Positions 32,701 through 57,621 of a DNA stretch of 63,921 nt are shown here, piece after piece. Within the stretch, counting starts at the first letter, position 1. Every line of letters starts with the position of its first letter. Origin of the DNA: a virus (Duplodnaviria; Caudoviricetes); the IMG/VR virus record IMGVR_UViG_3300045806_000080, positions 1 through 63,921 of that record. One strand, 5' to 3'. The position numbers and the translations under genes are program-made. Under the pieces are notes generated by a model. It was given only the letters and a program-made list of their open reading frames with translations, had not been told where the DNA came from and searched no databases.

Positions 32701-33523
32701 TCTTGGCGAGCATGTGCAGCCCGCCGCCCATCACGCCGCCCATCGCGCCGCCGGTCAGCGCGGCCTCGACCATCTGCTGCGCTCGGTTCGCGATCGGCCG
32801 GTTCGGGTCGCCCATCTGCTGCCCAATGAAGTCTTGGCCAGCGGAGGCGACAGCCTGCGTCCCTGCCTGCTTCGAGGCGGCCTTCCACAGCGGCTCGGCG
32901 ACGCCCTTGGCAACCGTACCAAAGAGGCGCTCCGCCGGGAGCGCGCCGACCGCGGCCATGGGGACAGCGAGCCCAGCCGCCTTGGCGGCCTCGCCCTGGG
33001 TGACATCCTTGCCGGTGTACTGCTCCTGCGTCTGGACGTTGCCGCCGAACATCTGTGGGTAGGCGGCGAGCGCGCCACCGATGAGGCCGCCGACAGTCGC
33101 GCCGACCGGAGCCGCCGGGCCTGTGAGCGCCCCACCGATCGCTGCACCGCCCATCGCGCCTCCGAGCACCGGCACCATGCCAGGCATGCCCTTGGCCACC
33201 CGATAGGCGAGCCCGGACGGAGAGAAGGCGCTGGTGGCTTCCCACGCGGGGTTCTCGGCCGCCGTGGCGGCGGCCTGCTGGCCCTGCGCCGCCCGCCCAC
33301 CCCACTGGGTGAGCGCAGTCGACCCAGTCAGCGCGCCGAGGCCCTTGGCCGCACTCGCGACCTGCCCCAACGCCTCGTGGGTTCCCCCTACGAGCGCTGA
33401 GCTGAGGAACCCGCTCTGGCTCGGCGCGACCATCCCGGCTGGGTGCCCTTGAGCGTAAGCCTGGTCGACAGCCTGCCAAAAGTTCGCGTAGCGCGGATCG
33501 CCGACATCAGCCATTGCACCCAC
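26753..33523 (-). CDS. Giant internal virion/ejection protein (PLxRFG-like, zincin motif)
   Basis: 2256 aa; FPMGRNGEF; HEAAH...EFLAEG; hydrophobic Gly-rich N-terminus. Confidence 0.75.
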   Translation of the reverse strand: MGAMADVGDPRYANFWQAVDQAYAQGHPAGMVAPSQSGFLSSALVGGTHEALGQVASAAKGLGALTGSTALTQWGGRAAQGQQAAATAAENPAWEATSAFSPSGLAYRVAKGMPGMVPVLGGAMGGAAIGGALTGPAAPVGATVGGLIGGALAAYPQMFGGNVQTQEQYTGKDVTQGEAAKAAGLAVPMAAVGALPAERLFGTVAKGVAEPLWKAASKQAGTQAVASAGQDFIGQQMGDPNRPIANRAQQMVEAALTGGAMGGVMGGGLHMLAKKPVHTITDDDLTTAVKDALDPAQKPQIAGLLQSPTMPMNAARPYEGLSNEALLDHAQTLQLRDPNHPALMDVAKEMELRRSPPEPGPDPDAALHTAWQDKSGLTNEAERVLPGSEADRLESAWATSPRAVQPMLGLPSPEMLRMPRGEDEPVHEPSVAVVPKRDEAGNLVFDKRDNPLSTRAPIEMSQTVAGEPVEPPKGPLGLPSPTKEAERAQETIERSTDPVNEPLGPPRVMSGEVPKMPDRSAPLPQTIAKTAMDANGGKIPSILRGSAKLTPEGAEAVIRADWADKTPNERLKDRLMPVARLLDMVDEAGNLNAPRGAPSIREAVPEQHQARFDKLEDIKAKVPEADRKDVEDAQVALANGGRGTVSMVDATIAEFQRTVAEGVARAKRAAARGEAAAAAQPAAPVEAPAAEKPGQAQPAPAAPVAQEPAPSPTATAKVDELIKQFRGVAENPSGKKAEAPTPIAPEHIEGLRGLIDRQGTVSLADLAKAMPGINRAGLDDVVSRLRFAGVLTPREGGAFDVLRPLSPEGKPAAPVAAEETSAKITTPKGANAVERFKQLVAEVMGGKEPAAPYQSVRDAIARVRASGKIMENVEPSWTPNHPKHDTVVTRDWKAAMAIQKERLDKIEQALNENPEQLRYLSDDHFYGPLWDKLYSETKNNDYPDGVLQWNAMKAAESHAELEQRVIDAIRRELPPNENDWFLRGASSDAQRNQMDVDLTGIVRASGQTKPALEHIAQSGSDPLVRAVARLLSNSGVDPSISFRDPARIARTQGRWPPSSLTAGARGMYTARTDGINLFGASGLEHAVVHEAAHAGSVRALGEDNPASRAFKSLFDAVKKRSPNDDAYGLTEPKEFLAEGMSNAQFQEWMRGQKEAGKTLWQRFKDGVANLLGFGGSKRTLLDQFMERGSAVLAEDQHYDRALAHTPAGSDAALKPAFLKLDEMRDRVSEMPVEHLTNFMPHLRSTVLGWVNSQTIAKWYGKYAPSFLTHTENLEWRDLMKEVNTKASSASIDRAAALPEASQEKFNKLVTGLHTGVNGMLDWSAHKDLFDAPNAAELGKSHMRLAQIWKSMSGEERGAFQGLVTAQRAHMEQLFATQLYNFIKSDYAKDIPLPPGLDPSEQFRLNPTLHDDPAANLAYWKSAGDQLAKLAGNHIDTVKGALAKLKGVKAGATGPDAGVITKRGESLADSISPLSSLLSDRVTRLAELDRLPNFPMGRNGEFFSAAKLKLSDDGLPSAKAVDKLQRMLNAGGFGHLTIDRNLENPTVYARVETPGQMERLNKIFQAAHDQGVFEPKSLSSGSIASLKAGITPQWQERAMQIMRSNLERFSGVDDASKALIEQRIAEAKREFLDLLPPSSLNRIMARREGVQGFSKEMLQNVRQRMSATSGALANIAAMPRLADSVVKMREDVKAANEANAPERIGMHQAAQELIRREAQRAVATPGAPMQAIREMGNAMEVGASPAYTVALLSQVGTLTLPRLGAAGGYMKAARAMAGVTKRTFDVMRAVAGGTDGLRFGMRESDLLKAGISKRDTEFLMRMDAMGAFNHGSFTEAMRAERGDPDSALGKARGWASAMGRYSEMMPRVLTALAARDMWSANQKLQAHESVHDFAHRMVEDSQLNWNPTFNARQMTRGGVFGPMSPLINQFMGYSTRLTEMLYREAANSIGREGPAAQAEARKFLLGHLAVTGAIAGSLGMPMAQVFSAVWDRLADWATNRDDHDITASYRGYLAHIFGKDVGEIIARGVPRAFGVDLSHLGDQRIAPGSTALTYLFEKRKLEDAQRDWLKAEAGHSFGLVGNFAFAARDIANGDYLNGAQKLVPELLRGPIEATRLGLYGYRDKSGMAQAVHPGMPAGAATTGDIVKTAVGLDPGDEAEFDEKKRTITGINTLAQVRSQNITQHMSLALTRGDSENFRYWIEQATKYQQDHPGMPGPLQGLGGYMSEHYRRAGYASAVGMPIGLSPKNIAGRGMLDY

Positions 33524-44851: not shown

Positions 44852-44992
44852 TGCCCTATGCGCCCGGCGTGCGCGCTAGGCGTCCCGATTAACGCGTTAA
44901 TCGAAGCCGGCAAGTCAGGGGAAATAGACCGCGAGACATGCTAATCTTGTTTTGTCAATCGGGATGGCCCGGTTGCTTCATTGGAGTGTGTC

Positions 44993-45745
44993 ATGACTGC
45001 TATCAATCTCTCGACGTTCGCCCCTGTGTCTTTGGACAAGGCTTTGGAATTGGTTCTCGACACGGCTCGCAATGAACAGACGTTTGCCGACGCGTCGCGC
45101 GGCGCTTTGAAGGCCGCGATCGCTTTCCTCAATGTTCCTCAGTGCGAGAAAGACGCGACTGTGTCGGCCGAAGACGAACAGCGCCTTTCGCCGATCTTTG
45201 ACGAATACATGACTGGCCGTCTCATGGGCGGATGCGGCATTGAGGAAAGCGCCGCGCGCTTGCAGTTGAGCTTGCAGCCGTATTTCTTCGCCGCGCCGGA
45301 AAAGAACAGCGACAAAAACCGGACCGAACGGGCGCAACGCGTGCTCAACTCCGCTCGCGTCACGCTTTCCCGCATCCGTGCGGCGTTCAACATTCCCGCT
45401 ATGAAGACGTCTCGCAAGCCGCGTCCAGAAGGAAACGCGACGCACGCCAAACCCGAGGATTTGGCGCACGGTTCCAGCCTCCCGACTTCGATTGCGTCGG
45501 CCACGGTTCCCCACGTCAAGACCATTGGCGACGCGAACGACTGGTTGAAAGACCTTGACGTCAAGGTCAACGACTTCGAACGCGTGAACGCCAAGGTCAT
45601 CATCGGCGACGCTGGCGAAGTGTTGCGGGAAACGTTCGCCGCTTTCCACGCTGGCATTGCCAAGGCTCGCGCGATCATGAGCGATCCGAGGGCAGCGCAG
45701 ATTGCGGCGCTGCAAGCGCAACTGGCCAAGTTGATGACCGCGTAA
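44993..45745 (+). CDS. Isolated early protein of unknown function
   Basis: GGAG RBS; extended -10 TGCTAATCT upstream; two terminators downstream. Confidence 0.75.
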   Translation: MTAINLSTFAPVSLDKALELVLDTARNEQTFADASRGALKAAIAFLNVPQCEKDATVSAEDEQRLSPIFDEYMTGRLMGGCGIEESAARLQLSLQPYFFAAPEKNSDKNRTERAQRVLNSARVTLSRIRAAFNIPAMKTSRKPRPEGNATHAKPEDLAHGSSLPTSIASATVPHVKTIGDANDWLKDLDVKVNDFERVNAKVIIGDAGEVLRETFAAFHAGIAKARAIMSDPRAAQIAALQAQLAKLMTA

Positions 45746-45762
45746 TCCAAACTGACGAAACT

Positions 45763-45790
45763 AAGGCCGCTCTTGCGAGCGGCCTTTTTT
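45763..45790 (+). terminator. Intrinsic terminator 1
   Basis: AAGGCCGCTC-ttgc-GAGCGGCCTTTTTT. Confidence 0.9.
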
Positions 45791-45804
45791 ATTGCCTTTG
45801 ACAT

Positions 45805-45836
45805 AGCCGTCAGCCGCGAGGCTTGGCGGCTTTTTT
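45805..45836 (+). terminator. Intrinsic terminator 2
   Basis: AGCCGTCAGCC-gcga-GGCTTGGCGGCT-TTTTT. Confidence 0.85.
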
Positions 45837-46021
45837 GTGCGCTTTGCAGGTTCGATTAACGCGTTAATCCGGCCGTAGCTCATAACCCAACGATATCAAT
45901 TGCAGCGCGCCCGAGCTAGTCCCCGTTAGCTCATGACACCAATGAAATCAAGCGTCGCAGTAGTTGGCGATCATACGCGTAGCCGGCGTTGCTCGTGCTC
46001 CTACCAGCCAAGTGCATGATA

Positions 46022-46221
46022 TCGTAACCAATAAGTTACCTGATACACTTATATATATGTTTTGACAATATACATATCCCCGTCAGGTAACTTTTGAGCC
46101 TTGGCCACTTATTACAACACTCCTGCCGTATCCCCCCTAAACACCTTATCCTATTCTCCATGGGGGGACTTGTATGTTGGAAAACGACCCATAAGTTAAT
46201 CAGGTAACTTATTGGTTACGA
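46022..46221. repeat. 23-bp perfect inverted repeat around an AT-rich core (candidate origin)
   Basis: TCGTAACCAATAAGTTACCTGAT at 46022-46044; reverse complement at 46199-46221. Confidence 0.85.
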
Positions 46222-46386
46222 CATCAACGCCTTGCGCGTATGACGCATCCGCTGTGTGCTGAAATAAACTAGCTCGTTCTCGCTAAGTGCAGCGTTTGCA
46301 CTTGCGGCGCGATTTCCCCTGAGAAATCAATGTCAGTGTCCAGAGCTAACGTCGCTCGATTAGCGCGTTAACGCACTGACACCCCC

Positions 46387-46415
46387 TTGACGTACACTGA
46401 CGATGGGTCTATGTC
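46387..46415 (+). promoter_or_regulatory. Promoter TTGACG-N17-TATGTC within a cluster of four CACTGAC motifs
   Basis: Motif copies at 46331, 46373, 46393, 46412. Confidence 0.65.
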
Positions 46416-46446
46416 AGTGCAATCAACCGGATAGGAGCACGAGCAA

Positions 46447-47106
46447 GTGAGCGAGGACAGGCAGCACTCCCGGTACGCCGGGCCAGATAGGCACACATGG
46501 CTCAAGACGGGCGAGCGCGTCCATAAGGGCCAGCGATGGTTCGTCGTCACGCCAGCCTACAAGCCCACGACAGTGACATGGACCCGCGGGGATCAGGCGT
46601 GGGCCGTGTCGATGGACTTCTTCGTGGAGCGTGTGCAGCCGCTCAACCAAGCGCGCCTCGTGTCTCTGGCGAAGCTGAGGCGCGGCCGGCTCGGGCTGGA
46701 GGCGAACGCCGAGCCAGAGACAGAGGCCGAGCTGTGCAACAGGCTGCTGCAAAGCCTGTTCCGTAACCCGAGCAACCAGCGCCTCCAGCGCCTGTTCGCG
46801 TTCATCGAGCAGCAGGATCACTTCGGCTGGTCGGATACCTGGGAGACGCCATCCATCGAGGCAGCGTCTCTGCCCATGCGCTGGTTGTCCGCGTGGCACA
46901 ACGACAACCGCCGCGGTGCCCAAGGCACGCAGGGCGTGGGGGCGTTCTCGCAGAGGGCGTATGACCACCTCCGAGCAGACGCCAACCGCGCCGGGCGGGC
47001 GGAGCTTGGCCTTGAGACGCGGGAGTTGCGCCGCATCTACACGGCCGGCTGCCCTTGCGCGTATTGCAAAGCACAGGCGCGCACGCTGATGGCTGAGGCA
47101 GCGTAA
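46447..47106 (+). CDS. Hypothetical protein (candidate regulator)
   Basis: AGGAG RBS; C-terminal CPCAYC. Confidence 0.65.
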   Translation: MSEDRQHSRYAGPDRHTWLKTGERVHKGQRWFVVTPAYKPTTVTWTRGDQAWAVSMDFFVERVQPLNQARLVSLAKLRRGRLGLEANAEPETEAELCNRLLQSLFRNPSNQRLQRLFAFIEQQDHFGWSDTWETPSIEAASLPMRWLSAWHNDNRRGAQGTQGVGAFSQRAYDHLRADANRAGRAELGLETRELRRIYTAGCPCAYCKAQARTLMAEAA

Positions 47107-47154
47107 TCTGCAAATCCTATCAGGTCCGTGACTGGTTTGATCCACATCCCGGAC

Positions 47155-47183
47155 TTGACTTATCCCCTTCCCTGTGCTATTAT
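47155..47183 (+). promoter_or_regulatory. Strong sigma70-type early promoter
   Basis: TTGACT-N17-TATTAT. Confidence 0.85.
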
Positions 47184-47270
47184 ACAATCTACCGGAGGCC
47201 CTGACCTACAGGGCGACGGCAACTAGGCTCGATTAACACGTTAATCAGAGCCCAAACGAAGGATCAGAAC

Positions 47271-47537
47271 ATGGGCAAGCCGATGACAACCGAAGACAAG
47301 CGTTGGCTCAAGGTCATGGCGCAGCGCGAAATCACGAGCAGCCGGAATAACCCGCTCTCCGGCGAGTTCTTCCTCAACTCGGTTGACCCCGATGGCTACA
47401 AGGAGCGCGTCGAGTGCCTCACCCTCGTGGAGGCGTTGCACTGCTTGGACGGCATGCTCTTTGAGCAGGACCCGTACATGGGCTGCATCAGCAACGCGTG
47501 GGGCGACGCCGCCAAGGGCATCCTCAATCATCGTTGA
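47271..47537 (+). CDS. Early hypothetical protein
   Basis: Palindrome + AGGATCAG leader. Confidence 0.7.
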   Translation: MGKPMTTEDKRWLKVMAQREITSSRNNPLSGEFFLNSVDPDGYKERVECLTLVEALHCLDGMLFEQDPYMGCISNAWGDAAKGILNHR

Positions 47538-47565
47538 TTAACACGTTAATCCAAGGACACACACG

Positions 47566-47928
47566 ATGGCCAAGCCCATCAACCTCAGCCTCATCGCTCA
47601 GCGCATGCGCCACGACGCGGCGGCCGAGAAGCAGCGCGAGCTGGATGCCTTCCGTCTTCGCCGCGATCGCGACGAGGCGTACCGCATGGAGCGTGAGCGG
47701 GCGATCGCTGGCGAGTGCTTCCTCCGCGCCATCAAGAGCGCCGAGTTCCCGACCACGCACACGGCGGCCAGCCGTGCGCTCCCCAAGCACGAGCGGCCAC
47801 ACCCGAGCGACGCCGGACAGCGTGCGTTCGTGTCGAACTGCATTACCGCGGAAGACTGTGCCCAGACGCGGCACCCCAAGAACATCCGCGCACACCGCGT
47901 CGGCTCCCCCGTCTGGGGCCTCGCCTGA
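47566..47928 (+). CDS. Early hypothetical protein
   Basis: Palindrome + AAGGA leader. Confidence 0.65.
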   Translation: MAKPINLSLIAQRMRHDAAAEKQRELDAFRLRRDRDEAYRMERERAIAGECFLRAIKSAEFPTTHTAASRALPKHERPHPSDAGQRAFVSNCITAEDCAQTRHPKNIRAHRVGSPVWGLA

Positions 47929-48104
47929 GCAACCAGCTAATCCAAGGAGTTTGTCATGCTTATCGTCCTGTTTCATCGCCTCCTCAGCGGCTCGCGTCAG
48001 GTGCAGTACGATGCGCATCTTTGGGCCTACTTGTATGGCACGAGCATCTAGCTGACTGGCAACCAATCGGGATTAACCCGTTAATCGAGAGAAGGATCAG
48101 CACC

Positions 48105-48287
48105 ATGTTGAATACGCAGACGCAGCCCAAGGGCTTCACCTACCGCATCGACTATTCGTGCGGCGAGGCGCGCAACCAGACGCGCTTCATCCACGGCGCG
48201 GTGTGCGCCAAGCACGCTCGCCTCATGTTCCGCGACATCCCGTGGATGACGCTGGCGATCATCAACTCGAACAAGCGCGTTGGCTAA
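48105..48287 (+). CDS. Early hypothetical protein
   Basis: Palindrome + AGGATCAG leader. Confidence 0.65.
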   Translation: MLNTQTQPKGFTYRIDYSCGEARNQTRFIHGAVCAKHARLMFRDIPWMTLAIINSNKRVG

Positions 48288-48298
48288 GGAGAACCACC

Positions 48299-48445
48299 AT
48301 GAGCGTAGCACAGTCGAGAGGCGCGGCCCGCAGGATGCGCGATCGGTACGGACGCGGGTCATTCCGCACCATCGGCGACATCGTCGCCAGCGACCGGCGC
48401 AAGGCCGCGCGCGCCGCCAGCATATCGAAGCCGAAGAAGGGCTGA
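48299..48445 (+). CDS. Small basic protein
   Basis: AAGGAG RBS; Arg/Lys-rich. Confidence 0.55.
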   Translation: MSVAQSRGAARRMRDRYGRGSFRTIGDIVASDRRKAARAASISKPKKG

Positions 48446-48533
48446 GCTGACCAGATGCCGCGAGGGACGCGCGGCATCGAGTGAGCCCAAGCATGGCTCC
48501 CCGGATTAACGGGTTAATCGAGAGGATCAGATC

Positions 48534-48926
48534 ATGGGACAGCGACATCACAACGCGATCGGCATCGCCGGGGGCGCGTGCAACCCGCTCGCCATATCAA
48601 ACGCAATCGCTCGTGGATGCCACGAGATCATGGACAACCCGGCGGGCTACGCAGGCACCGACGCCATCACCAGCGACCCGGCGATCAAGCTGATGACGAG
48701 CCAGCTCGCCTACATCACAGGCGTCTGGTCCGGCGTGTCGAACTTCTCGAAGGGCGCGGACTTCCGCGACTGCCTGACGGCGTGTCGCAACGAGGTCGCG
48801 AGCGAGCCGACCAAGAGCGACCTCATGCATGAGGCGGCCGAGGCGCGAGGCGTGCCGGTCGTGGACATCAGGATGATCCAGTTCGACGGCGCGGACCTGA
48901 GTGGCTTCCCGACGATCGACCCGTGA
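48534..48926 (+). CDS. Early hypothetical protein
   Basis: Palindrome + AGGATCAG leader; GACNP...DPA...QLA. Confidence 0.7.
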   Translation: MGQRHHNAIGIAGGACNPLAISNAIARGCHEIMDNPAGYAGTDAITSDPAIKLMTSQLAYITGVWSGVSNFSKGADFRDCLTACRNEVASEPTKSDLMHEAAEARGVPVVDIRMIQFDGADLSGFPTIDP

Positions 48927-48976
48927 CGTCAACCGCAGTACACTGACATCAAGTCAGGACTGGAAGGATCAGCACC

Positions 48977-49504
48977 ATGAAACGATACCTCCTTGCCGCC
49001 ACCATCCTCGCGGCCCTCTCGACGCCGAGCGCGGCCTCGCTCGTCAGCTTCACGTTCGCCGGGCCGTTCGGCTCGGGCTCGATCAACGGACGCGTGGTCG
49101 TGGATGTCGAGGGCGGGCTCGCCACGTCAGGCACCGCCACCATGCAGGGCTGGGGCATCGACGGCACGCAGACGCTGGCGCTCGTGACGCCGGCCGGCGC
49201 GGTCTACCGCTCGGGCAACGGCACCGACATCTGGGACGGCGACAACCGCGTGCCGATCACATGGGGCGGCATCGTGTTCGGAACCAACGCGGCCACGTCC
49301 GGGTCCGGTGGTTACAACCTCGGCATATGGGCCGAGACGCCGGCCACCTACCGCGGCTTCGCGTCTGGACCTGGCCTCTGGTCGTACACTGGCGAGCTGT
49401 CGGTCAACCCGATCCCCGAGCTGTCGACATGGGCGATGTTCGCCATCGGCGCGGCGGCGATCGCGTTCACCGGCTATCGCAAGCCCGCGCGCTACGCCCT
49501 CTGA
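48977..49504 (+). CDS. PEP-CTERM (PEPxxWA-type) exported surface protein
   Basis: Signal peptide; C-terminal IPELSTWAM + TM helix + basic tail GYRK. Confidence 0.85.
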   Translation: MKRYLLAATILAALSTPSAASLVSFTFAGPFGSGSINGRVVVDVEGGLATSGTATMQGWGIDGTQTLALVTPAGAVYRSGNGTDIWDGDNRVPITWGGIVFGTNAATSGSGGYNLGIWAETPATYRGFASGPGLWSYTGELSVNPIPELSTWAMFAIGAAAIAFTGYRKPARYAL

Positions 49505-49583
49505 AGGGACACTCGCATGCGGCGGAACCCCGAGCGCGACCTGTACGCAGGCGCGCTGGCGAGCGCCATGGAGGCCATTCGCC

Positions 49584-49772
49584 ATGCCAACTACTACGAC
49601 AAACGCGCTTGCGCACTGGCGCGACCGCGTTCCGGCTCCGGGGCAAAAGCCCCGTCCGTGCCCGTATTGCGGACATAGCTACATCATGCCCTGCAACGAG
49701 CAGCAACACGCTGCTTGCCAGAACTTCACCCACAAACGCGTCCCGATTAACGCGTTAATCAAGGAGACTTAG
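49584..49772 (+). CDS. Small Zn-finger-like protein
   Basis: GGAGG upstream; CPYC...C...C. Confidence 0.5.
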   Translation: MPTTTTNALAHWRDRVPAPGQKPRPCPYCGHSYIMPCNEQQHAACQNFTHKRVPINALIKET

Positions 49773-49773
49773 T

Positions 49774-49905
49774 ATGTTCATCGTCGTCACCAACCGCGCC
49801 GATGGCTCGGTCTACGGCCCGTTCGACACGCTCACCGCGGCCGAGAACTACGCTCACAGTCACTGTGTCGGCTGCTGCTGGCACGTCGCCATGCTGACCA
49901 AGTAG
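49774..49905 (+). CDS. Small hypothetical protein
   Basis: Palindrome + AAGGAG; YGPF.T...AE.YA. Confidence 0.6.
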   Translation: MFIVVTNRADGSVYGPFDTLTAAENYAHSHCVGCCWHVAMLTK

Positions 49906-49914
49906 GGGGCTGGC

Positions 49915-50235
49915 GTGGACCATCTGTTCAATTGCTGCACGGGCCTGGGCGGGGCGGGCATGGACCATCTGTTCAACTGCTGCACTGACGGGGCCGAGCC
50001 TGACTGGTCTACCTACAAGTCGCTGGAGGTCGGTGGCTGTGTGACTGAGCGCGAGCCCAACGGCGACACGTTCACGGTCGGCGGCAAGGACGACGACGAG
50101 GCCGAGTTCTGGACGGTCTACGGCCGGTTCGCCGATGGCGACTGCGAGGCCATCACGGATTGCAAGACGCGTCAGATCGCCGACCTCGTCCTGTCGGCGT
50201 TCACGATCGTTTCCCGTCTCAAGGCGGAGGTTTGA
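49915..50235 (+). CDS. Hypothetical protein with duplicated start segment
   Basis: MDHLFNCCT twice; AEFWTVYGR...EAITD. Confidence 0.65.
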   Translation: MDHLFNCCTGLGGAGMDHLFNCCTDGAEPDWSTYKSLEVGGCVTEREPNGDTFTVGGKDDDEAEFWTVYGRFADGDCEAITDCKTRQIADLVLSAFTIVSRLKAEV

Positions 50236-50237
50236 TC

Positions 50238-50429
50238 ATGGTCAAGACAACGAGAGCGCAGCGCGTGGCGCTGTTCAGGCTCTGGGAGCGCAAGGACAGC
50301 CGGCGGCCCGACGAGACCTACTGCCGGTTCAGGCGGCGCGTGCAGCCTGAGTTCTGCGGCAAGGCCATCATGATCGAGTGGGCCGGCATGTGGATCGGGA
50401 TCGAGCCGGACGGATACGCGCACAGCTAG
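50238..50429 (+). CDS. Conserved small phage protein
   Basis: GGAGG RBS; ends MWIGIEPDGYAHS. Confidence 0.7.
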   Translation: MVKTTRAQRVALFRLWERKDSRRPDETYCRFRRRVQPEFCGKAIMIEWAGMWIGIEPDGYAHS

Positions 50430-50439
50430 GGAGGGTCGG

Positions 50440-50673
50440 ATGACACGAGCCGAACGTCGACATCATCGCGGGCGCTTGCTGGTCAAGCGCAGGGGCTACG
50501 CGGTCGCCAAGGACGACCCGACACCCAAGCGCCTGGGCAAACTGGCGCGCACGGCGACGCCCTGCTCCTGCGAGATGTGCCGCAACCAGCGGGCGAACGA
50601 AGGCCCGACGCTCGGCGAGCGTCGCTTCAACTGCGAGCCATTGAAGGTGCCCGAGGTCTGGTTCGATGAGTGA
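50440..50673 (+). CDS. Small basic Cys-motif protein
   Basis: TPCSCEMCRNQR. Confidence 0.65.
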   Translation: MTRAERRHHRGRLLVKRRGYAVAKDDPTPKRLGKLARTATPCSCEMCRNQRANEGPTLGERRFNCEPLKVPEVWFDE

Positions 50674-51025
50674 CACGGTCACGAGCGAGATGCGCGTGAT
50701 GCTGCTGCTGCGGCTGTATGGGCGGGCGATCGCCCGTCTGACCGGCCGCAGCGCTGACGCTCAGTGGGTCGATTACTGGACCATCGGCGACAACTGTGTG
50801 TCGAACGCGGTGCTCGGCAGGCTCGTGGAGAAGGGCCTCGCCCACCGTGTGTGGGTGTCGACGAACGCTGGGCGCAACCAGTACGCCGAGTTCGTCTTCG
50901 GGAAGCAACCAAGAAAGCGGAGAGCGTCATGCAAGACGACCCCACCTATGACATCTGCCACCAGCGCAAGAAGGGCTTCCGCGTCTACGTCCGGCGCGAC
51001 CTGCGCGACCGCATCCACGTCGTGA
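50666..51025 (+). CDS. Hypothetical protein
   Basis: Coupled ORF; WTIG...V...L.RL.EKGL. Confidence 0.55.
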   Translation: MSDTVTSEMRVMLLLRLYGRAIARLTGRSADAQWVDYWTIGDNCVSNAVLGRLVEKGLAHRVWVSTNAGRNQYAEFVFGKQPRKRRASCKTTPPMTSATSARRASASTSGATCATASTS

Positions 51026-51106
51026 CGCCGAGCACGCTCAACGCGTGGGTGATCGGCGGCGCGAAGCCTGCAACCTCGAAGGGATTGTAACCATGAGTAA
51101 TTCGTC

Positions 51107-51322
51107 ATGAGCGGCGACAGCGAGTGGCGCTGCCGCTCGTGCGGCACGATCTGGATCGCCGACCACCAGCAGCTCGTCTGCCGTGTGTGCGGTGACGAGA
51201 AGGTCGCGCTTGCAGAGCGGCCGACAGCGCCCCGTCGCAAGCATCCCAACATCTGCTTCGGCGACATCATCCTCGGCGGCCTCGCGCCGCCAGCCAGCAA
51301 CAGCAAGACATTGGAGAGATAG
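51107..51322 (+). CDS. Zn-ribbon protein
   Basis: CRSC...CRVC. Confidence 0.55.
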   Translation: MSGDSEWRCRSCGTIWIADHQQLVCRVCGDEKVALAERPTAPRRKHPNICFGDIILGGLAPPASNSKTLER

Positions 51323-52048
51323 ATGCGAAACGATATGTGGTGGGCCTCGGCCTCGACGATGAACCAAGCGGTCGACCGCGGGCTCAACGCCTACCTCGGA
51401 AGCCTCGGCTTCCCGGACGCGAAGGTCCTGTTCATGGACGAGCTGCCGCCCCCCGACGCCTACTGGCGCGGCGCGCTCAAGGCCAGCTACGAGTTCCTCA
51501 AGACCCATAAGCTCGGCGACCACATCGCCGCGCCTCGCTCGTGGCGGCAGGCGTTCGGCACCGGCCAGATGATGGAGCGGACCGATGTCCCCTCGTCACT
51601 GGTCGGGCTCCTGGCTGAGTTCTACGCGTTCAACGCGCGAACTACTGCGACAAAACCCTGCAACCCACACGACGACCGCACGATCACGATCGGTCAACTC
51701 AAGGGCGTCGCTGCCGGCTTGGTGAACGACGGCGACCCGTTGGACGGCATCGAACTGTACGACGGCACCAACGAGTATATCCGAGGCATGTCCGAACTGA
51801 TCGGTCGGTCGCTGCTGGACCTGCTCGGCGTCGGCGACGGCACGGGCGAGAACGCGAAGCTGATCGCGGCCGAGATTGCCGCCAAGTTCGAGCCCGAGCC
51901 CAAGCCCGTCAAGACGACGATCACCGCGACCGTGACGATGCCGTTCTTCGGCACGACGGCCGACGCTCAGACGTGGGCCGAGAACCACACGATCTTCGAG
52001 ATGCTCGATGCGAGGGGCGTCAACGTGGACGGACCGAACATCGCCTGA
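51323..52048 (+). CDS. Hypothetical (possibly mosaic) protein
   Basis: GGAGA RBS; stop codon abuts a palindrome. Confidence 0.65.
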   Translation: MRNDMWWASASTMNQAVDRGLNAYLGSLGFPDAKVLFMDELPPPDAYWRGALKASYEFLKTHKLGDHIAAPRSWRQAFGTGQMMERTDVPSSLVGLLAEFYAFNARTTATKPCNPHDDRTITIGQLKGVAAGLVNDGDPLDGIELYDGTNEYIRGMSELIGRSLLDLLGVGDGTGENAKLIAAEIAAKFEPEPKPVKTTITATVTMPFFGTTADAQTWAENHTIFEMLDARGVNVDGPNIA

Positions 52049-52156
52049 ATTAACCCGTTAATCGGGGACGGAGCCGAGACGCAAAGCGCAGGCTCCGTAG
52101 ATAAGCCCTCGAAACACTCGGGCTTATCTCGCTCCACTTCGATAAGGATCAGAACT

Positions 52157-52675
52157 ATGTGGAATAGCTATACCGACACCTCCGCTTGGCGGGGCGTGAA
52201 CGACTATCAGCGCGCGTTTGAACGCTGGCAGAAGGCCCCACAGTGGCGCGGCGATGAGAAGTCCGACTTCACCCCGCGCAAGGTCGAGCGCAACAGCTCG
52301 AAGCGCGAGTGGACCCGACGCGGCACTGGCACCGCCGAGCTGACATACGTCTTCATCGACCGGACCCGCTGGCCCGAGCTGCTCAACATCCGCACGTTCT
52401 ACCCGGACGCCGACGAGCGCCTCCTGTGCTACGGGCGGCCGGTCACGAGCCGGTACTCTCGCGACCCCCGCCCGAACTTCGGGTCGGGAGGGTGGGAGAA
52501 AGTCCCCCCGCTCACGCTGCCCGAGCGATCAGCGCGCCAGGCCGGGCGCATTATCGAGGCCATGCGGCTCGCGCTCTACAAGGCGCACGACTGCATCGTG
52601 ACCGAGACCCTGCCCCACTACCAGAGCTGGTCGCATCTGCGGACGGTGGCTGAGGCCAACCGGAAGCTGTCGTGA
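52157..52675 (+). CDS. Hypothetical protein
   Basis: AGGATCAG leader. Confidence 0.65.
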   Translation: MWNSYTDTSAWRGVNDYQRAFERWQKAPQWRGDEKSDFTPRKVERNSSKREWTRRGTGTAELTYVFIDRTRWPELLNIRTFYPDADERLLCYGRPVTSRYSRDPRPNFGSGGWEKVPPLTLPERSARQAGRIIEAMRLALYKAHDCIVTETLPHYQSWSHLRTVAEANRKLS

Positions 52676-52935
52676 CCGACGAGCCCTACGTCGTCGGCTG
52701 GGACCACGACGAGATCGTCTCCGAGATGGAGGCGATGATCCTGTTCCGCCGGCACAAGCAGACAGCGTGGGTCGGCCACTGGACGCTCGGCGGCCGGGTG
52801 ATCAGCCACGAGCTGCTGGCGGGCATGCTCATAAAGGGCCTCATCGACCGCTTCCGAGACGACAGCTTCAGCTTCGAGCGTCGCATTAACCCGAAATACG
52901 ACAACGCAGGAGGCAACTATGCCGCGAGTGATTGA
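52672..52935 (+). CDS. Hypothetical protein
   Basis: Coupled ORF; WTLGG..IS..L...LIKGLI. Confidence 0.55.
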   Translation: MTDEPYVVGWDHDEIVSEMEAMILFRRHKQTAWVGHWTLGGRVISHELLAGMLIKGLIDRFRDDSFSFERRINPKYDNAGGNYAASD

Positions 52936-53080
52936 GAAGACCGTGTTCAAGTTCGACAAGCTGAGCAAGCGCGCCAAAGAGAAGGCGCGTGACTGGTATC
53001 GGAACGCGTCGTGCCAGGACTGGGAGCCGAACCTCCAGGAGTTCGACGACTGCGCCACGAGTACGAGTTGGCTCAATTAA
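52919..53080 (+). pseudogene. Probably truncated conserved phage gene
   Basis: AGGAGG RBS; MPRVIEKTVFKFDKLSKRAKEKARDWYR; stop codon lies inside a palindrome after 53 aa. Confidence 0.5.
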
Positions 53081-53115
53081 CACGTTAATCCAACGAAAAG
53101 AGAAGGATCAGCATC

Positions 53116-54213
53116 ATGGCTAAGGCGATCATCACCACTGGCGAGCCCACCGTCAACATCCCGCAACTCAAGCGGATCATCCGCGACGACATCATCGAGG
53201 ACAACGACGTCGGGTTCTTCTACGGCGAGGCCGGCATCGGCAAGACCTACGCCATCCGGCAGGCGTGCGAAGATGCTGGCGCGTTCCTCTGCGAGATCAG
53301 GCTCGGGCAGTACGACAGCGTCGACCTCCGCGGCTTCCCAGGCGTCGATGCGCTGAACAACACGACCTGCTGGTATCCTCCCAAGACGCTGCCGATCGTG
53401 GGCACGCCGGGCTGGCCGACCGACAAGCCGATCGTCATCTTCTACGACGAGGCGACCAGCGCGACGATGCCGGTCTGGGCCGTCATGTACCAGGCGTTGC
53501 AGGACGGCGGGATCGGCGAGCACAAGTTCATGCCGAACGTCCGTCAGTGCGCGGCTGGCAACCTCGACACTGACCGTGGCGTGGTCAACCGGACGCCGGC
53601 CCCGGTGTCCAACCGCTGCCTCAACTTCCGTGTGGCGCTCGACATCAGCGCGTGGATCAAGTACATGGCCGCGCTCGGCACGCCCCCGCTCTACCTCGCC
53701 TACCACGGCTGGCGCGGCAAGGAGGGCAAGAACATCCTCCTGAGCTGGGACCCGGACGCTGCCGTGCAGCCCAAGTCCTACGGCTCTCCGCGGTCCTGGG
53801 CACGGGCGATCCGCAAGCACGTCAAGTACGCCAACCGCGACCCCGACCACGCGTTCATCGCCATGGCGGCCTCGATCGGCGAGGGGCTGGCGCTCGACTT
53901 CCGGGGCTTCGAGCAGATTTACGAGAAGGTGCTGCGCCCCGAGGACATCATCAAGAACCCGAAGGGCGTCAAGCTGCCCGAGGACGAGAGCCTGATTTAC
54001 GCCACGGCTGTCAGTGTGAGCGGTGCAATGACCTTGACTACGGTCAAGCCACTGCATACGTTTCTCACTCGGCTCGACCCTGAATACTGTATAATGGCCT
54101 GGCAATTGGCTGTGGCTCGGGACCCGGCGATCTACATGGCCGACGAGTTCCTCGACGTCAGCCAGCGTTACAAGGCGATCTTCGACGTGGCGACGTCCAG
54201 GAGGGCTACGTGA
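53116..54213 (+). CDS. MoxR/dynein-related AAA+ ATPase
   Basis: GEAGIGKT, IFYDE, AAGN, NR, SPRSW. Confidence 0.9.
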   Translation: MAKAIITTGEPTVNIPQLKRIIRDDIIEDNDVGFFYGEAGIGKTYAIRQACEDAGAFLCEIRLGQYDSVDLRGFPGVDALNNTTCWYPPKTLPIVGTPGWPTDKPIVIFYDEATSATMPVWAVMYQALQDGGIGEHKFMPNVRQCAAGNLDTDRGVVNRTPAPVSNRCLNFRVALDISAWIKYMAALGTPPLYLAYHGWRGKEGKNILLSWDPDAAVQPKSYGSPRSWARAIRKHVKYANRDPDHAFIAMAASIGEGLALDFRGFEQIYEKVLRPEDIIKNPKGVKLPEDESLIYATAVSVSGAMTLTTVKPLHTFLTRLDPEYCIMAWQLAVARDPAIYMADEFLDVSQRYKAIFDVATSRRAT

Positions 54214-54716
54214 TAGCGATAGGACAACGCTTCGGCCGCCTCGTTACCGACGCTGAGGTGCGGCTGCCGGTAGGCTCTGGGCGGCAGATGCGGCTCCACT
54301 ACGTGTGCCTTTGCGATTGCGGTGCAGTGACAAAGCCGATAATGTCCTCGAACCTAACTTCGGGGCGTACGATGAGTTGCGGCTGCCGGCATGGCGAGGC
54401 TGTGCGTGAGAATGGGTTGGCGAACAAGCGGCACGGCCACTCTTGCGGACAGGCGCTATCTCCAACCTACTCCAGTTGGAGGTCGATGCGCCATCGCTGC
54501 GCCAACCCCAGATCGCCTGACTTCCCGGACTACGGGGGGCGAGGCATCACAGTGTGCGAGCGGTGGCGCTCGTTCGATGACTTTCTGGCCGACATGGGAG
54601 AGCGGCCAGCAGGCACGACCATAGACCGTGCCGAGAATGACGAGGGCTACCGCCCCGGCAACTGCCGATGGGCGACGCCATTAGAGCAGCGCCACAACCA
54701 ACGGCGCTGCCAATAG
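54210..54716 (+). CDS. HNH homing endonuclease-like protein
   Basis: GQRFGRL...C.CDCG...SCGC...YGGRGI.VCERW...TIDR...Y.P.NCRWAT. Confidence 0.88.
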   Translation: MIAIGQRFGRLVTDAEVRLPVGSGRQMRLHYVCLCDCGAVTKPIMSSNLTSGRTMSCGCRHGEAVRENGLANKRHGHSCGQALSPTYSSWRSMRHRCANPRSPDFPDYGGRGITVCERWRSFDDFLADMGERPAGTTIDRAENDEGYRPGNCRWATPLEQRHNQRRCQ

Positions 54717-54784
54717 TTTCTCCCCGAGGTAAGTGGGAGGAAGGCCGAGCGATCAAGCCCGGTCAGTGAGAGGATGGGACAGGA

Positions 54785-55075
54785 ATGACACAGACAGGAA
54801 CTGAGACGGGCAAAAGCAAGAAGAAACCCGTTCGCAGGTCTGTGAGGCAAATGGCGCTCCCGGAGATCAGCGAGAAGATCATGGAGCGGAGCTATCAACG
54901 CTCCGGCGTGGTCGCTGGCGGAACTCTGTTGAGCAGCGGAGCCAAGCAGGCAACAGTGGCGTTCACGCCCCCGACCTTCCGCAAACTGAAACTGGCGGCC
55001 GACCAGAACGGCGTGAGCCTTTCTGAGATGGTGCGCCAGTGTGTGGACATGGCCCTGAACAAAAAGGGCGAGTGA
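54785..55075 (+). CDS. Ribbon-helix-helix DNA-binding protein
   Basis: ATVAF.....KLK.AA...GVSLSEMVR..V. Confidence 0.7.
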   Translation: MTQTGTETGKSKKKPVRRSVRQMALPEISEKIMERSYQRSGVVAGGTLLSSGAKQATVAFTPPTFRKLKLAADQNGVSLSEMVRQCVDMALNKKGE

Positions 55076-55083
55076 CCCCTCCC

Positions 55084-55131
55084 CGTCCCCGGCTCGAACA
55101 ATAAACACAACGAGCCGGGGCGGGATTTATT
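55084..55131 (+). terminator. Hairpin/terminator after RHH gene
   Basis: CCCCGGCTCG...CGAGCCGGGG followed by ATTTATT. Confidence 0.55.
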
Positions 55132-55147
55132 AGGATCAGACCTCCCC

Positions 55148-55387
55148 ATGCCCAAGCGATTAAGCAAGCGCATCCAGCGCATACGGCTGGCTGCGATCAT
55201 GGGTATTGTGCGCCTTGAGCCCTACACTGACGCCTGCATCCGCGACCGATACACCATTAACGGCGTCGAGGTGACGGCGCAGCTCCGCTGGCTGTGCGAA
55301 CGCGACTACCTGCACATCCGAGAGTGGGAGCCACGATCCGGCAAGGGCGGCCCCGTGCGGTTCGATCCAGGCAGGAGCCCGCCATGA
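55148..55387 (+). CDS. Small protein, apparent paralog 1
   Basis: LAAIMG...Y.ING.EVT..L..L. Confidence 0.6.
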   Translation: MPKRLSKRIQRIRLAAIMGIVRLEPYTDACIRDRYTINGVEVTAQLRWLCERDYLHIREWEPRSGKGGPVRFDPGRSPP

Positions 55388-55650
55388 TCGAACTACCCGA
55401 CGATCCGTTCACGCGGATCGACCGAGGGATACTGGCTGCGCTCGCGTTCGGCGGCCTTACGATCGGCTTCGCTCCCGGCGACGACGGCTTCATCCGCGAG
55501 GAGGGCATCGTCTTCCGCGGCAAGAACGTCACCAATGAGATCGGCCGGCTGATCATCCTGATCAACGGCGGCTACGGCGACAAGGAAGCCTTGCCCAAGT
55601 TGCGTGCGCTGATGGGGCGGATCGACGCTCACCCGTTCAACAACCTCTGA
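55384..55650 (+). CDS. Small protein, apparent paralog 2
   Basis: LAALAFG...FRG.NVT..I.RL. Confidence 0.6.
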   Translation: MIELPDDPFTRIDRGILAALAFGGLTIGFAPGDDGFIREEGIVFRGKNVTNEIGRLIILINGGYGDKEALPKLRALMGRIDAHPFNNL

Positions 55651-55657
55651 GGTTCCC

Positions 55658-55888
55658 ATGGACCTGACCGACCGCGAGCGCCGCGTCTACACGGCGGCGC
55701 TGATGGGGCTCGTGCGCACGATGCTCGACCGCAGCTACCTGTCGTTCGTGATCGGTGATGACGACGTGACCGAGACGTTTGATCGGCTGCGCTTCACCCA
55801 CAGAATTTTGACATGGGAGAGCACCGAAGACTGTCGGGTCATCTGCAAACCGCGAGACCCTGACGCTTACTGGACCCGGAAGGACTAA
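55658..55888 (+). CDS. Small protein, apparent paralog 3
   Basis: TAALMG...F.IG.DDVT..F.RL. Confidence 0.6.
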   Translation: MDLTDRERRVYTAALMGLVRTMLDRSYLSFVIGDDDVTETFDRLRFTHRILTWESTEDCRVICKPRDPDAYWTRKD

Positions 55889-55892
55889 GACA

Positions 55893-57068
55893 ATGGCTAG
55901 TCAAGCAATCACCAAGATGCAGCAGGCGCGTGGTCGCCTGATCTTGCAGCACGTCTTCTGGGCGGTGCTCGCCCTGAGCCTGCCGATGGTGGAAGACCCC
56001 GGCTGCGGCACGGCGTGGACCGATCACAAGCGGATCGGCTTCGACCCCAAGTTCATCGAGAGCCTGCCGCTCGACGTGGTCCTGTTCGTGATCGCTCACG
56101 AGGTGGCTCACGTCATGTTCCTCCACGCGCTCCGGCGCGGCGACCGGGACCCCATGCTCTGGAACATCGCCTGCGATCACGCGATCAACATCCTGCTCAA
56201 GAAGTGCGGGTTCACGATCTGGTCGAAGGCGTGCTGCGACATGCGCTTCGCCGCCATGAGCGCCGAGCAGATTTACGAGCAGCTCAAGCAGGAGGCCGAG
56301 GCGCGCGGCAAGGGCAAGCCGGGCGACGAAGCCGGCGACGGCAAGGGCGGCACCATGAAGAACGGCAAGTACGTTCCCGCGCCTGGAGAGATGGACGGCA
56401 TCGGCGGCGACCTCAAGTACGTACCGATGACGCCGGAGGAGGTCCGGGAGGCCGAGCGCGACACCAAGGGCAAGGTCTCGCAGGCTGCGACGCAGGCGAA
56501 GATGTGTGGCCAGCTTCCGCAGGAGATCGCCCAGGCCGTGGGTGAGCTGCTCTCCCCGCCGCAGCCCTGGTATCGCGTGTTCGCCGAGTACATGCGCCAG
56601 GTCGTCTACGAGGACGAGAGCTGGCAGCGCCGCAACCGGCGGTACTCCGCCTACTTCATGCCCGGCCGCCAGAACTACAAGATGGGCGAGCTGGTCATCA
56701 TCGGCGACACTTCGGGCTCGATGTGCTCGCCGGACGTCTACGCCCGTATGTCAGTTGAAATCCAAGGCGTGGTAGAACAGTTGAAGCCCACCCGCACCCG
56801 CGTGATCTGGGCCGACGACACCGACTGCTCGTCGCAGCAAGTGTTCGAGTACGGCGACACCATCAAGATCGCTCCTGTCGGAGGGGGTGGTACTGACATG
56901 CGAAAGAGCTTAAAGTACGTCGAGCAGTACGAGCCGCTCGTCGTCCTGCTCATAACAGACACCTACACACCGTGGCCTGCAAGCGTCCCGTACCCGCTGA
57001 TCTGCGCGAGTACAACAGACCAGGCCATGCCAGCCAACCTCGGTCGAACGGTCCACCTCCCACGATGA
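55893..57068 (+). CDS. DUF2201-like metallopeptidase + VWA domain protein
   Basis: HEVAH zinc motif, WNIACD.AIN, MIDAS DTSGS, GGGGTD, ITD. Confidence 0.9.
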   Translation: MASQAITKMQQARGRLILQHVFWAVLALSLPMVEDPGCGTAWTDHKRIGFDPKFIESLPLDVVLFVIAHEVAHVMFLHALRRGDRDPMLWNIACDHAINILLKKCGFTIWSKACCDMRFAAMSAEQIYEQLKQEAEARGKGKPGDEAGDGKGGTMKNGKYVPAPGEMDGIGGDLKYVPMTPEEVREAERDTKGKVSQAATQAKMCGQLPQEIAQAVGELLSPPQPWYRVFAEYMRQVVYEDESWQRRNRRYSAYFMPGRQNYKMGELVIIGDTSGSMCSPDVYARMSVEIQGVVEQLKPTRTRVIWADDTDCSSQQVFEYGDTIKIAPVGGGGTDMRKSLKYVEQYEPLVVLLITDTYTPWPASVPYPLICASTTDQAMPANLGRTVHLPR

Positions 57069-57604
57069 CACCCTACAGAGAAGCCCTTGAGGCCGAAATA
57101 GGCCGGTGTTATGGCCGGCTTACAGTTATGCTGCTTGTCAAGCACGGCAAGCGGTGGGCCGCCATGTGTGCCTGTTCCTGTGGCGGCACAGCGGGGCCGA
57201 CGTTGTTCAAGCACCTGCGATCCGGTCACTCGTTCAGTTGCGGTTGCGCACAGCGCGAAGCCGTGAAGGAGACCGGCGAGACTAGCAGGCATGGCGGCGC
57301 GCGTCGCGCGGGCAGGTCACCTACCTACCGGGCATGGCAGGCAATGCGTGGCAGGTGCCGCAGCCGCGACCAACATAAGCGGCAATACTATCTCGACCGC
57401 GGTGTCACTGTCTGTGAGCGATGGGACACCTTCGAGAACTTCCGTGCCGACATGGGTGAGCCCCCGGCCGGGTTCACTTTGGACCGGATCGACCCTGACA
57501 AAGGCTACTCACCTGAGAACTGCCGGTGGGCAACTTGGGTAGAGCAACGAAGCAACCAGCGCCGGAACTACTCCGACGCGTCCAAAGCGCGATTAACGCG
57601 TTAA
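57065..57604 (+). CDS. HNH homing endonuclease-like protein
   Basis: YGRLTV..C.CSCG..SCGC..VCERW..TLDRID..KGY.PENCRWAT. Confidence 0.88.
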   Translation: MTPYREALEAEIGRCYGRLTVMLLVKHGKRWAAMCACSCGGTAGPTLFKHLRSGHSFSCGCAQREAVKETGETSRHGGARRAGRSPTYRAWQAMRGRCRSRDQHKRQYYLDRGVTVCERWDTFENFRADMGEPPAGFTLDRIDPDKGYSPENCRWATWVEQRSNQRRNYSDASKARLTR

Positions 57605-57621
57605 TCGAGAGGATCAGAACC

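Follow-up and report, generated by a model that had tools for sequence, protein, structure and literature searches.

The window analysed here, the whole 63,921-base stretch of DNA, is a virus record that contains a real, conserved, phage-borne gene homologous to bacterial proteins with PEPxxWA tails. We consider it probable that this is an accessory gene from a bacterial, exosortase-associated envelope family, and that the tail of its product is read by the exosortase of the host, with remodelling of the cell surface or matrix as its most likely use. The gene begins with an ATG, encodes 175 amino acids that end in the C-terminal tail NPIPELSTWAMFAIGAAAIAFTGYRKPARYAL, and has a GC3 of 0.90, similar to that of the neighbouring genes. 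The gene and the parts of its product are as follows:

48977..49504, + strand: gene for a 175-residue predicted secreted beta-barrel protein with a PEPxxWA-type (PELSTWA) sorting tail (open reading frame, GC3, homologues, AlphaFold model)
48977..49036, + strand: signal-peptide-like N-terminus, residues 1-20, with predicted cleavage after S-A-A (sequence, conservation of A20, model helix 2-14)
49037..49411, + strand: mature domain, residues 21-145, modelled as an eight-stranded beta-barrel (AlphaFold model, composition)
49412..49501, + strand: sorting tail, I-P-E-L-S-T-W-A followed by a hydrophobic helix (149-167), R168, K169, R172 and the C-terminus (sequence, alignments, model)

The N-terminus, MKRYLLAATILAALSTPSAA with a serine directly after the predicted cut, carries a basic n-region and a hydrophobic core, with S-A-A as the putative cleavage site. 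Residue A20 is invariant in all eight close sequences and at least 90% conserved across 32 sequences. This pattern, the conserved alanine and the model helix at residues 2-14 suggest that the N-terminus resembles a Sec signal peptide. Residues 21-145 are composed of 20% G, 11.2% T, 8.8% S and 4.8% N and contain no Cys, which is absent from the whole 175-residue protein. This composition fits the description of PEP-CTERM proteins as having abundant Thr, Ser and Asn and hardly any Cys, as given in the available part of Haft et al. (2006; PMC1569441). The tripeptide of the tail is P147-E148-L149, that is, PEL where a near-invariant PEP would be expected. The hydrophobic stretch after the motif, STWAMFAIGAAAIAFTGY, is long enough for a membrane helix of about 14 residues and is modelled as a helix at 149-167. 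The motif begins 29 residues from the end and the basic residues R168, K169 and R172 lie within the last eight, although this cluster of three falls short of the 'strongly basic five-residue region' of PEP-CTERM in the same part of that paper (PMC1569441). The translation and composition of the open reading frame therefore agree with the sequence-only reading, which had described a signal-peptide-like N-terminus, a Gly/Thr/Ser-rich body and a C-terminal tail.

AlphaFold2, run with a 32-sequence alignment, gave a model with a mean pLDDT of 90.2 and a pTM of 0.79, comprising an N-terminal helix (2-14), a beta domain (21-145) and a C-terminal helix (149-167). In the model the beta domain forms a small up-and-down eight-stranded barrel and residues 149-167 a putative C-terminal membrane helix. 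A wide structural search returned small eight-stranded barrels at Z 6.5-8.4, including PliC, avidins, OmpA, OmpW and NHBA. The top rows were PliC (4mir, Z 8.4; 3oe3, Z 8.0), PhiA (Z 7.9) and ACP (Z 7.2), at the level of the tool's stated background of Z = 7-8. Foldseek searches against the PDB and viral models gave nothing at E <= 0.001, and the modelled barrel appears to have no specific structural relative.

In a word-indexed search, eight of 805 candidates reached E <= 0.01, namely the window's own protein and seven homologues that are 56-74% identical to it. An alignment of these eight close sequences has 68 invariant columns, P147 and E148 included. Five of the seven homologues have PEP in their tails and four pass the cut-off of TIGR02595; NF035944 scores only 20-27 bits on them against a cut-off of 35 bits. 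An exhaustive phmmer search extended the set to 66 representatives at E <= 1e-3, with 10 at <= 1e-10 and two at <= 1e-30. Most of these alignments span residues ~2-170, demonstrating full-length homology to an unnamed beta-barrel family, and some are confined to the tail, where they match the C-termini of longer unrelated proteins with canonical VPEPSTWAMM tails. Among 32 aligned family members, NF035944 (PEPxxWA-CTERM) and PF07589 (PEP-CTERM) each match 26 at E <= 0.01, and the PepA model gives weak matches in 21, all far under its cut-off. The nearest clusters in the ESM Atlas are bacterial proteins of 174-185 residues, with PF07589 on 49-83% of their members. The homology is clear, and these alignments place the phage protein in an unnamed bacterial family of ~175-210 residues with PEPxxWA tails. 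Close and distant homologues, and the matches of NF035944 and PF07589 across the family, thus back the earlier assignment of the tail to the PEPxxWA type of PEP-CTERM signal.

The HMM check that had been proposed for this assignment failed on the phage protein itself, which matches none of TIGR02595, NF035944 and PF07589. Neither NF035944, for which 35 bits would have been needed, nor PF07589 matched it at E <= 10; Pfam returned nothing relevant, and TIGR02595 matched nothing in the virus record at E <= 10. Curated models gave sub-cutoff matches to three PEP-CTERM family models over residues 129-169, the best at 26 bits against a cut-off of 50. The protein misses the curated tail models because its tripeptide is PEL, not PEP. 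Among GenBank phages, megablast of positions 46000-52000 found no match; tblastn of the phage protein gave one chance-level row (E 0.4) and, with the canonical family member P0021 as the query, nothing at E <= 10, in both cases with a low-complexity filter that may hide tails. Pattern scans of IMG/VR, species-representative genomes and JGI metagenomes brought up no close relative.

To place the PEL tripeptide, we compared tails across the family. A script recognised tails in 61 of 73 proteins (P0001-P0073); the other 12 are without a recognisable tail and several of them are fragments. The tripeptide is PEP in 42 of the 61 and PEL in seven, one being the window's own. The remainder are PEA (three), PEI, PES and PLP (two each), PET and PEV (one each) and a single, doubtful PLN. 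Two of the PEL-tail clusters include proteins from contigs 350,045 and 101,585 bases long, and these contigs are taken to be cellular. Protein ends of the form VPELSTWAML... are encoded in three exosortase-positive metagenome-assembled genomes (MAGs), where PEM, PEA and PEG tails also occur, and a search of IMG/VR with the pattern PE[L/F]xTWAM yielded 17 matches, 11 of them genuine PELSTWAM tails. Judged from these tails, PEL is an ordinary variant of the sorting signal and not a phage-specific change. The sequence-only reading had raised the option that the protein competes with host substrates, with PEP changed to PEL. That suggestion is not supported, given the finding of PEL in six other family representatives, in exosortase-positive MAGs and in 11 other IMG/VR tails: since PEL is ordinary in the family, in bacteria and in IMG/VR, it lends no special support to a competitor.

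A locus search found bacterial members of the family in a Roseiarcus MAG and in three MAGs of uncultured Alphaproteobacteria, with 37-43% identity to the phage protein across almost its full length. All four of these MAGs contain an exosortase above the TIGR02602 cut-off, and they carry between 3 and 29 tail matches each. When the best candidates per genome were scored in 401 genomes from the class of one MAG and 301 from its order, the sole match was the centre genome; the distribution of the family among bacteria is patchy. In the virus record, TIGR02602 has no match at E <= 1, consistent with the earlier statement that no exosortase is visible in the phage genome. The sequencing runs that contain the window sequence are labelled as permafrost or peat metagenomes, and the window may itself derive from one of them.

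The virus record is 100% complete according to CheckV, has ends classed as 'linear' by IMG/VR and a G+C content of 65%. Its large open reading frames match a phage helicase, primase/helicase, DNA polymerase, large terminase and head-tail adaptor/portal-like protein. Packaging and virion genes occupy the - strand within ~10.2-44.2 kb of the window, and + strand genes run from ~44.9 kb to the window end and then from 1 to 10.2 kb, where the replication genes are found. The PEL-tail gene is placed in a run of small + strand open reading frames that starts the + strand block, with phage genes flanking it on either side, and this position upstream of the replication genes implies that it is probably expressed early. 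PHROGs contain no family for the 175-residue protein, and two of nine neighbour genes match families, both of unknown function. No tRNA genes were found in the window, and promoter and terminator scans of it gave counts at chance level. Elsewhere in the window, an open reading frame of 2256 residues (26753-33523, - strand) matches PHROGs only in its C-terminal third, all of them families without a known function, and is 28% identical over 317 residues to an open reading frame at the end of a related phage, G703. In the replication region, a 391-residue open reading frame (55893-57068, + strand) matches phrog_1314 ('HNH endonuclease') from end to end with an E-value of 5e-86.

Three DNA motifs accompany the gene:

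48965..48972, + strand: AGGATCAG, extended Shine-Dalgarno sequence 4 nt ahead of the ATG (over-representation, position before ATGs)
48939..48948, + strand: TACACTGACA, over-represented 10-mer in the 50-nt intergenic space ahead of the gene (26 sites against 1.48 expected)
48506..48518, unstranded: palindrome TTAACGGGTTAAT at the start of the three-gene block that contains the gene (repeat of palindromic sites)

There are 15 exact sites for AGGATCAG in the window compared with 2.06 expected. Since it lies 3-7 nt 5' of an ATG at ten of its 11 + strand sites, it can be read as an extended ribosome-binding site of the window phage. The count for TACACTGACA, which allows up to one mismatch across the window, is a 17-fold excess. 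Its sites (for example 13178, 25097, 26731, 40500, 42877, 43358, 48939 and 59420) are mostly intergenic, occur in both orientations relative to genes, are frequently extended to TACACTGACAAGATGG and include the tandem pairs 40476/40500, 42877/42895 and 25097/25132. Both of these motifs, which the sequence-only reading had placed at 48939 and 48965 and called regulatory, are present there and strongly over-represented. It had taken the gene to be apparently domesticated. By the counts of AGGATCAG and its spacing from the ATG, the gene uses the window phage's own ribosome-binding-site consensus and, with its phage-type GC3, is written in the phage's own 'dialect'. The palindrome, TTAACNNGTTAAT and often ATTAACNNGTTAATCGAG, has 10 sites (44889, 45856, 47233, 47538, 48073, 48506, 49747, 52050, 53077 and 57593) and a degenerate copy at 46359-46371, with 0.03 expected; the next copy downstream of the one that precedes the gene is at 49747-49759. 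It is confined to the + strand small-gene region (44888-57605), mostly just 5' of a ribosome-binding site. It resembles an operator to which a dimeric DNA-binding protein would bind, dividing the small-gene region into cassettes.

Contigs from a second DNA run, X2 (records 10 and 11), span 46996-55120 with zero differences and an identical gene context. A contig of the same run fuses 50097 to 51259, omitting 1161 bases, at a depth of 3.3 and with a shorter side of 20 letters; it may, on this slight basis, represent a deletion variant of the small-gene region. The longest contig for a homologue of the window's phage ATPase (P0128, 56% identity) and that for a homologue of the PEL-tail protein (P0005, 63%) are both 8,038 bases long and share a source, and the two genes are 3.6 kb apart in the window. 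From this coincidence we infer that a related phage probably carries homologues of both. Another homologue of the PEL-tail protein, P0077, is on a contig of 49.6 kb. No longest-contig size is common to homologues of the upstream neighbour and the PEP-CTERM homologues. The nearest complete relative in IMG/VR, G703 (63,185 bases, direct terminal repeats), has 56% G+C compared with 65% for the window. Its terminase is 49% identical to that of the window, and it possesses the window's virion and replication genes at 25-63% identity (L021-L024). The family was not found in G703, and none of the window's open reading frames between 44.9 and 62.8 kb are shared with it. The absence of the gene from this relative, and of the region around it, indicates that it is dispensable for this type of phage; the gene is accessory and the region variable.

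Three metatranscriptomic libraries contain contigs that match the stretch from 44 to 56 kb at scattered places, with no or few differences (for example 47154-47349, 47874-48277, 48512-48677 and 49472-49766). One RNA contig of 151 nt (49472-49622) covers the last 33 nt of the gene, in libraries where DNA carry-over is possible. The body of the gene is not covered by the RNA contigs listed for the three libraries, which speaks neither for nor against its expression.

A survey of phage genomes for such tails had been proposed earlier. A scan of IMG/VR for DNA able to encode PEPxTWAM gave at least 120 loci. In the 120 listed, 117 of 125 pattern matches were genuine tails, defined as in-frame matches after which come a hydrophobic stretch, two or more basic residues and, 18-45 codons on, a stop. 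With the PELSTWAM tails included, there are at least 128 genuine tails in IMG/VR loci, some of them in genomes with direct terminal repeats. The median open reading frame length is 223 residues among the matches listed. Most of these proteins have N-terminal domains unrelated to the family, and three reach E <= 0.01 with the family N-terminal profile. The loci concerned (L025-L161, with at least 117 PEPxTWAM and 11 PELSTWAM tails) encode diverse proteins of ~150-300 residues with signal peptides, and 13 of the 117 tails have the ending R-[FYL]-A-[FLIVM], like the ...ARYAL of the window protein.

For 50 of the 120 loci, picked among those listed for contigs of ~15 kb or longer, the corresponding 48 records were checked as a whole. 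NF035944 matches were present in all 48 at E <= 0.001 and above the cut-off in 33; 19 of the records are at least 90% complete, and they comprise seven with direct terminal repeats, nine classed as provirus and 32 as linear. The tail genes lie well inside the record in all seven repeat-bounded genomes. For three repeat-bounded genomes, seven of 10 neighbouring open reading frames match PHROG families at E <= 1e-5, and the PHROG neighbours of tail genes include a DNA primase, a virion structural protein and a DNA ejection protein. Judging by these sequences, phage-borne PEPxxWA tails are recurrent.

In the literature on PEP-CTERM, exosortase or PEPxxWA in combination with phage, prophage or viral, as far as the accessible portions of these sources extend, we found no description of phage-encoded exosortase substrates. 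The available part of one preprint describes a PEP-CTERM domain protein, HOG10, in the virus-like IME1 elements of Dehalococcoides (bioRxiv 10.64898/2026.09.15.751708), and that of a Microcystis preprint a mutation that is associated with phage resistance and lies upstream of a PEP-CTERM gene, which only hints that PEP-CTERM proteins can matter in phage infection. The tails in phages look like a recurring, undescribed route to altering the host cell surface. We tentatively suggest, as a possibility that falls short of the expected outcome, that phages of exosortase-bearing bacteria commonly encode exosortase substrates. These would constitute an undescribed class of accessory gene through which the host pathway places a protein of the phage's choosing at the surface or within the exopolysaccharide layer, changing adsorption, superinfection or aggregation.

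The mechanism that we propose for the window protein is based on the accessible parts of Haft et al. (2006; PMC1569441) and of the CrtB study. The protein would be exported by Sec and its signal peptide cut off; the C-terminal helix would then anchor it so that the barrel occupies the periplasm and P-E-L is positioned at the periplasmic face of the membrane. Recognition of the tail by the host exosortase would pass the domain to the cell surface or the exopolysaccharide layer. In the least certain step, the surface or matrix of the infected cell would be remodelled, for example blocking further phage adsorption or protecting progeny. The benefit that we favour, speculatively and on the analogy of phage exclusion lipoproteins, is a remodelling that limits further adsorption.

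The step that depends on exosortase would be superfluous if the tail were a plain C-terminal membrane anchor, giving an inner-membrane protein with a periplasmic barrel directed, for instance, at phage DNA entering the cell or at enzymes of the envelope. A signal peptide, a domain and a C-terminal helix would confer this topology by default, all the tail HMMs failed on the phage protein, and the motif is PEL instead of PEP. However, the P, the E, the xTWAM stretch and their spacing are kept in the homologues exactly as in exosortase substrates, and PEL tails co-occur with exosortase in bacteria; we regard a plain anchor as unlikely. The P-to-L difference from the consensus is the one observation that speaks for a decoy, in which the PEL tail would occupy or inhibit the host exosortase and leave host PEP-CTERM proteins unsorted. 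The occurrence of PEL in seven of 61 family tails, in the large-contig clusters, in exosortase-positive MAGs and in 11 of 17 IMG/VR matches, together with that of A, I, S, T, V, M and G at the third motif position, renders a decoy very improbable.

A different objection is that the gene may be a recent host-derived passenger with no role in infection, as could be expected from its absence in the nearest complete relative and its location in a variable region with no shared open reading frames. Against this, its codon bias is that of the phage, as is its ribosome-binding-site consensus, and its product is only 37-43% identical to the bacterial members compared with 56-74% to a tight metagenomic clade. 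One homologue is also probably on the same contig as a phage-ATPase homologue, as the length of 8038 bp in both suggests, and the 68 invariant columns among eight sequences likewise argue against a passenger, which we consider quite unlikely. Finally, the PliC, PhiA and ACP rows that head the structural search could be taken to indicate a periplasmic protein of the PliC/MliC fold that inhibits lysozyme, modulating lysis or giving protection from muramidases. Their Z values are at the tool background, outer-membrane barrels and avidins score equally, Foldseek is empty at its threshold and there is no Pfam match, and we give scarcely any credence to an inhibitor of this kind. We retain sorting by the host exosortase as the probable fate of the protein.

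Exosortase sorting is widespread in environmental bacteria and poorly understood, with few substrates of known role. Phage-borne substrates would provide small, portable test proteins for the pathway, and would draw attention to steps at the cell surface or in the matrix that are important when soil and peat bacteria are infected.

With the PEP-CTERM/exosortase (EpsH) system the window protein shares a signal-peptide-like N-terminus, a Cys-free Thr/Ser/Gly-rich domain, the motif, the helix and a basic C-terminus; its homologues match TIGR02595, PF07589 and NF035944, and the bacterial ones occur in genomes that contain exosortase. It differs from that system in being encoded by a phage without an exosortase of its own, in its PEL motif and in scoring below every curated cut-off. 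HOG10 of the Dehalococcoides IME1 elements is comparable as a protein annotated as PEP-CTERM on a virus-like mobile element, although the type of element and the host phylum are different and the likeness is one of description, taken from the accessible part of that preprint, and not of sequence. PepA of Zoogloea (NF033554) represents a type of small PEP-CTERM protein needed for flocculation or matrix attachment. The window protein resembles it as a short, predicted-secreted protein with the same kind of tail, but its domain belongs to a distinct, unnamed beta-barrel family whose matches to PepA are far under the cut-off. Llp of T5 and Cor of phi80 and N15 are phage lipoproteins that block receptors or superinfection and depend on a lipobox and the Lol pathway. 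Like these, the window protein is predicted to be a small exported phage protein that would use a host sorting pathway to reach the envelope. Unlike them, it contains no Cys, so that the lipobox Cys after the signal peptide is absent (the LPAM_1 match, at E 0.14, is below its cut-off), and it has a PEP-CTERM-type tail in place of a lipobox. If phage-borne exosortase substrates block adsorption, they would represent a new route to superinfection exclusion beside the lipoprotein route.
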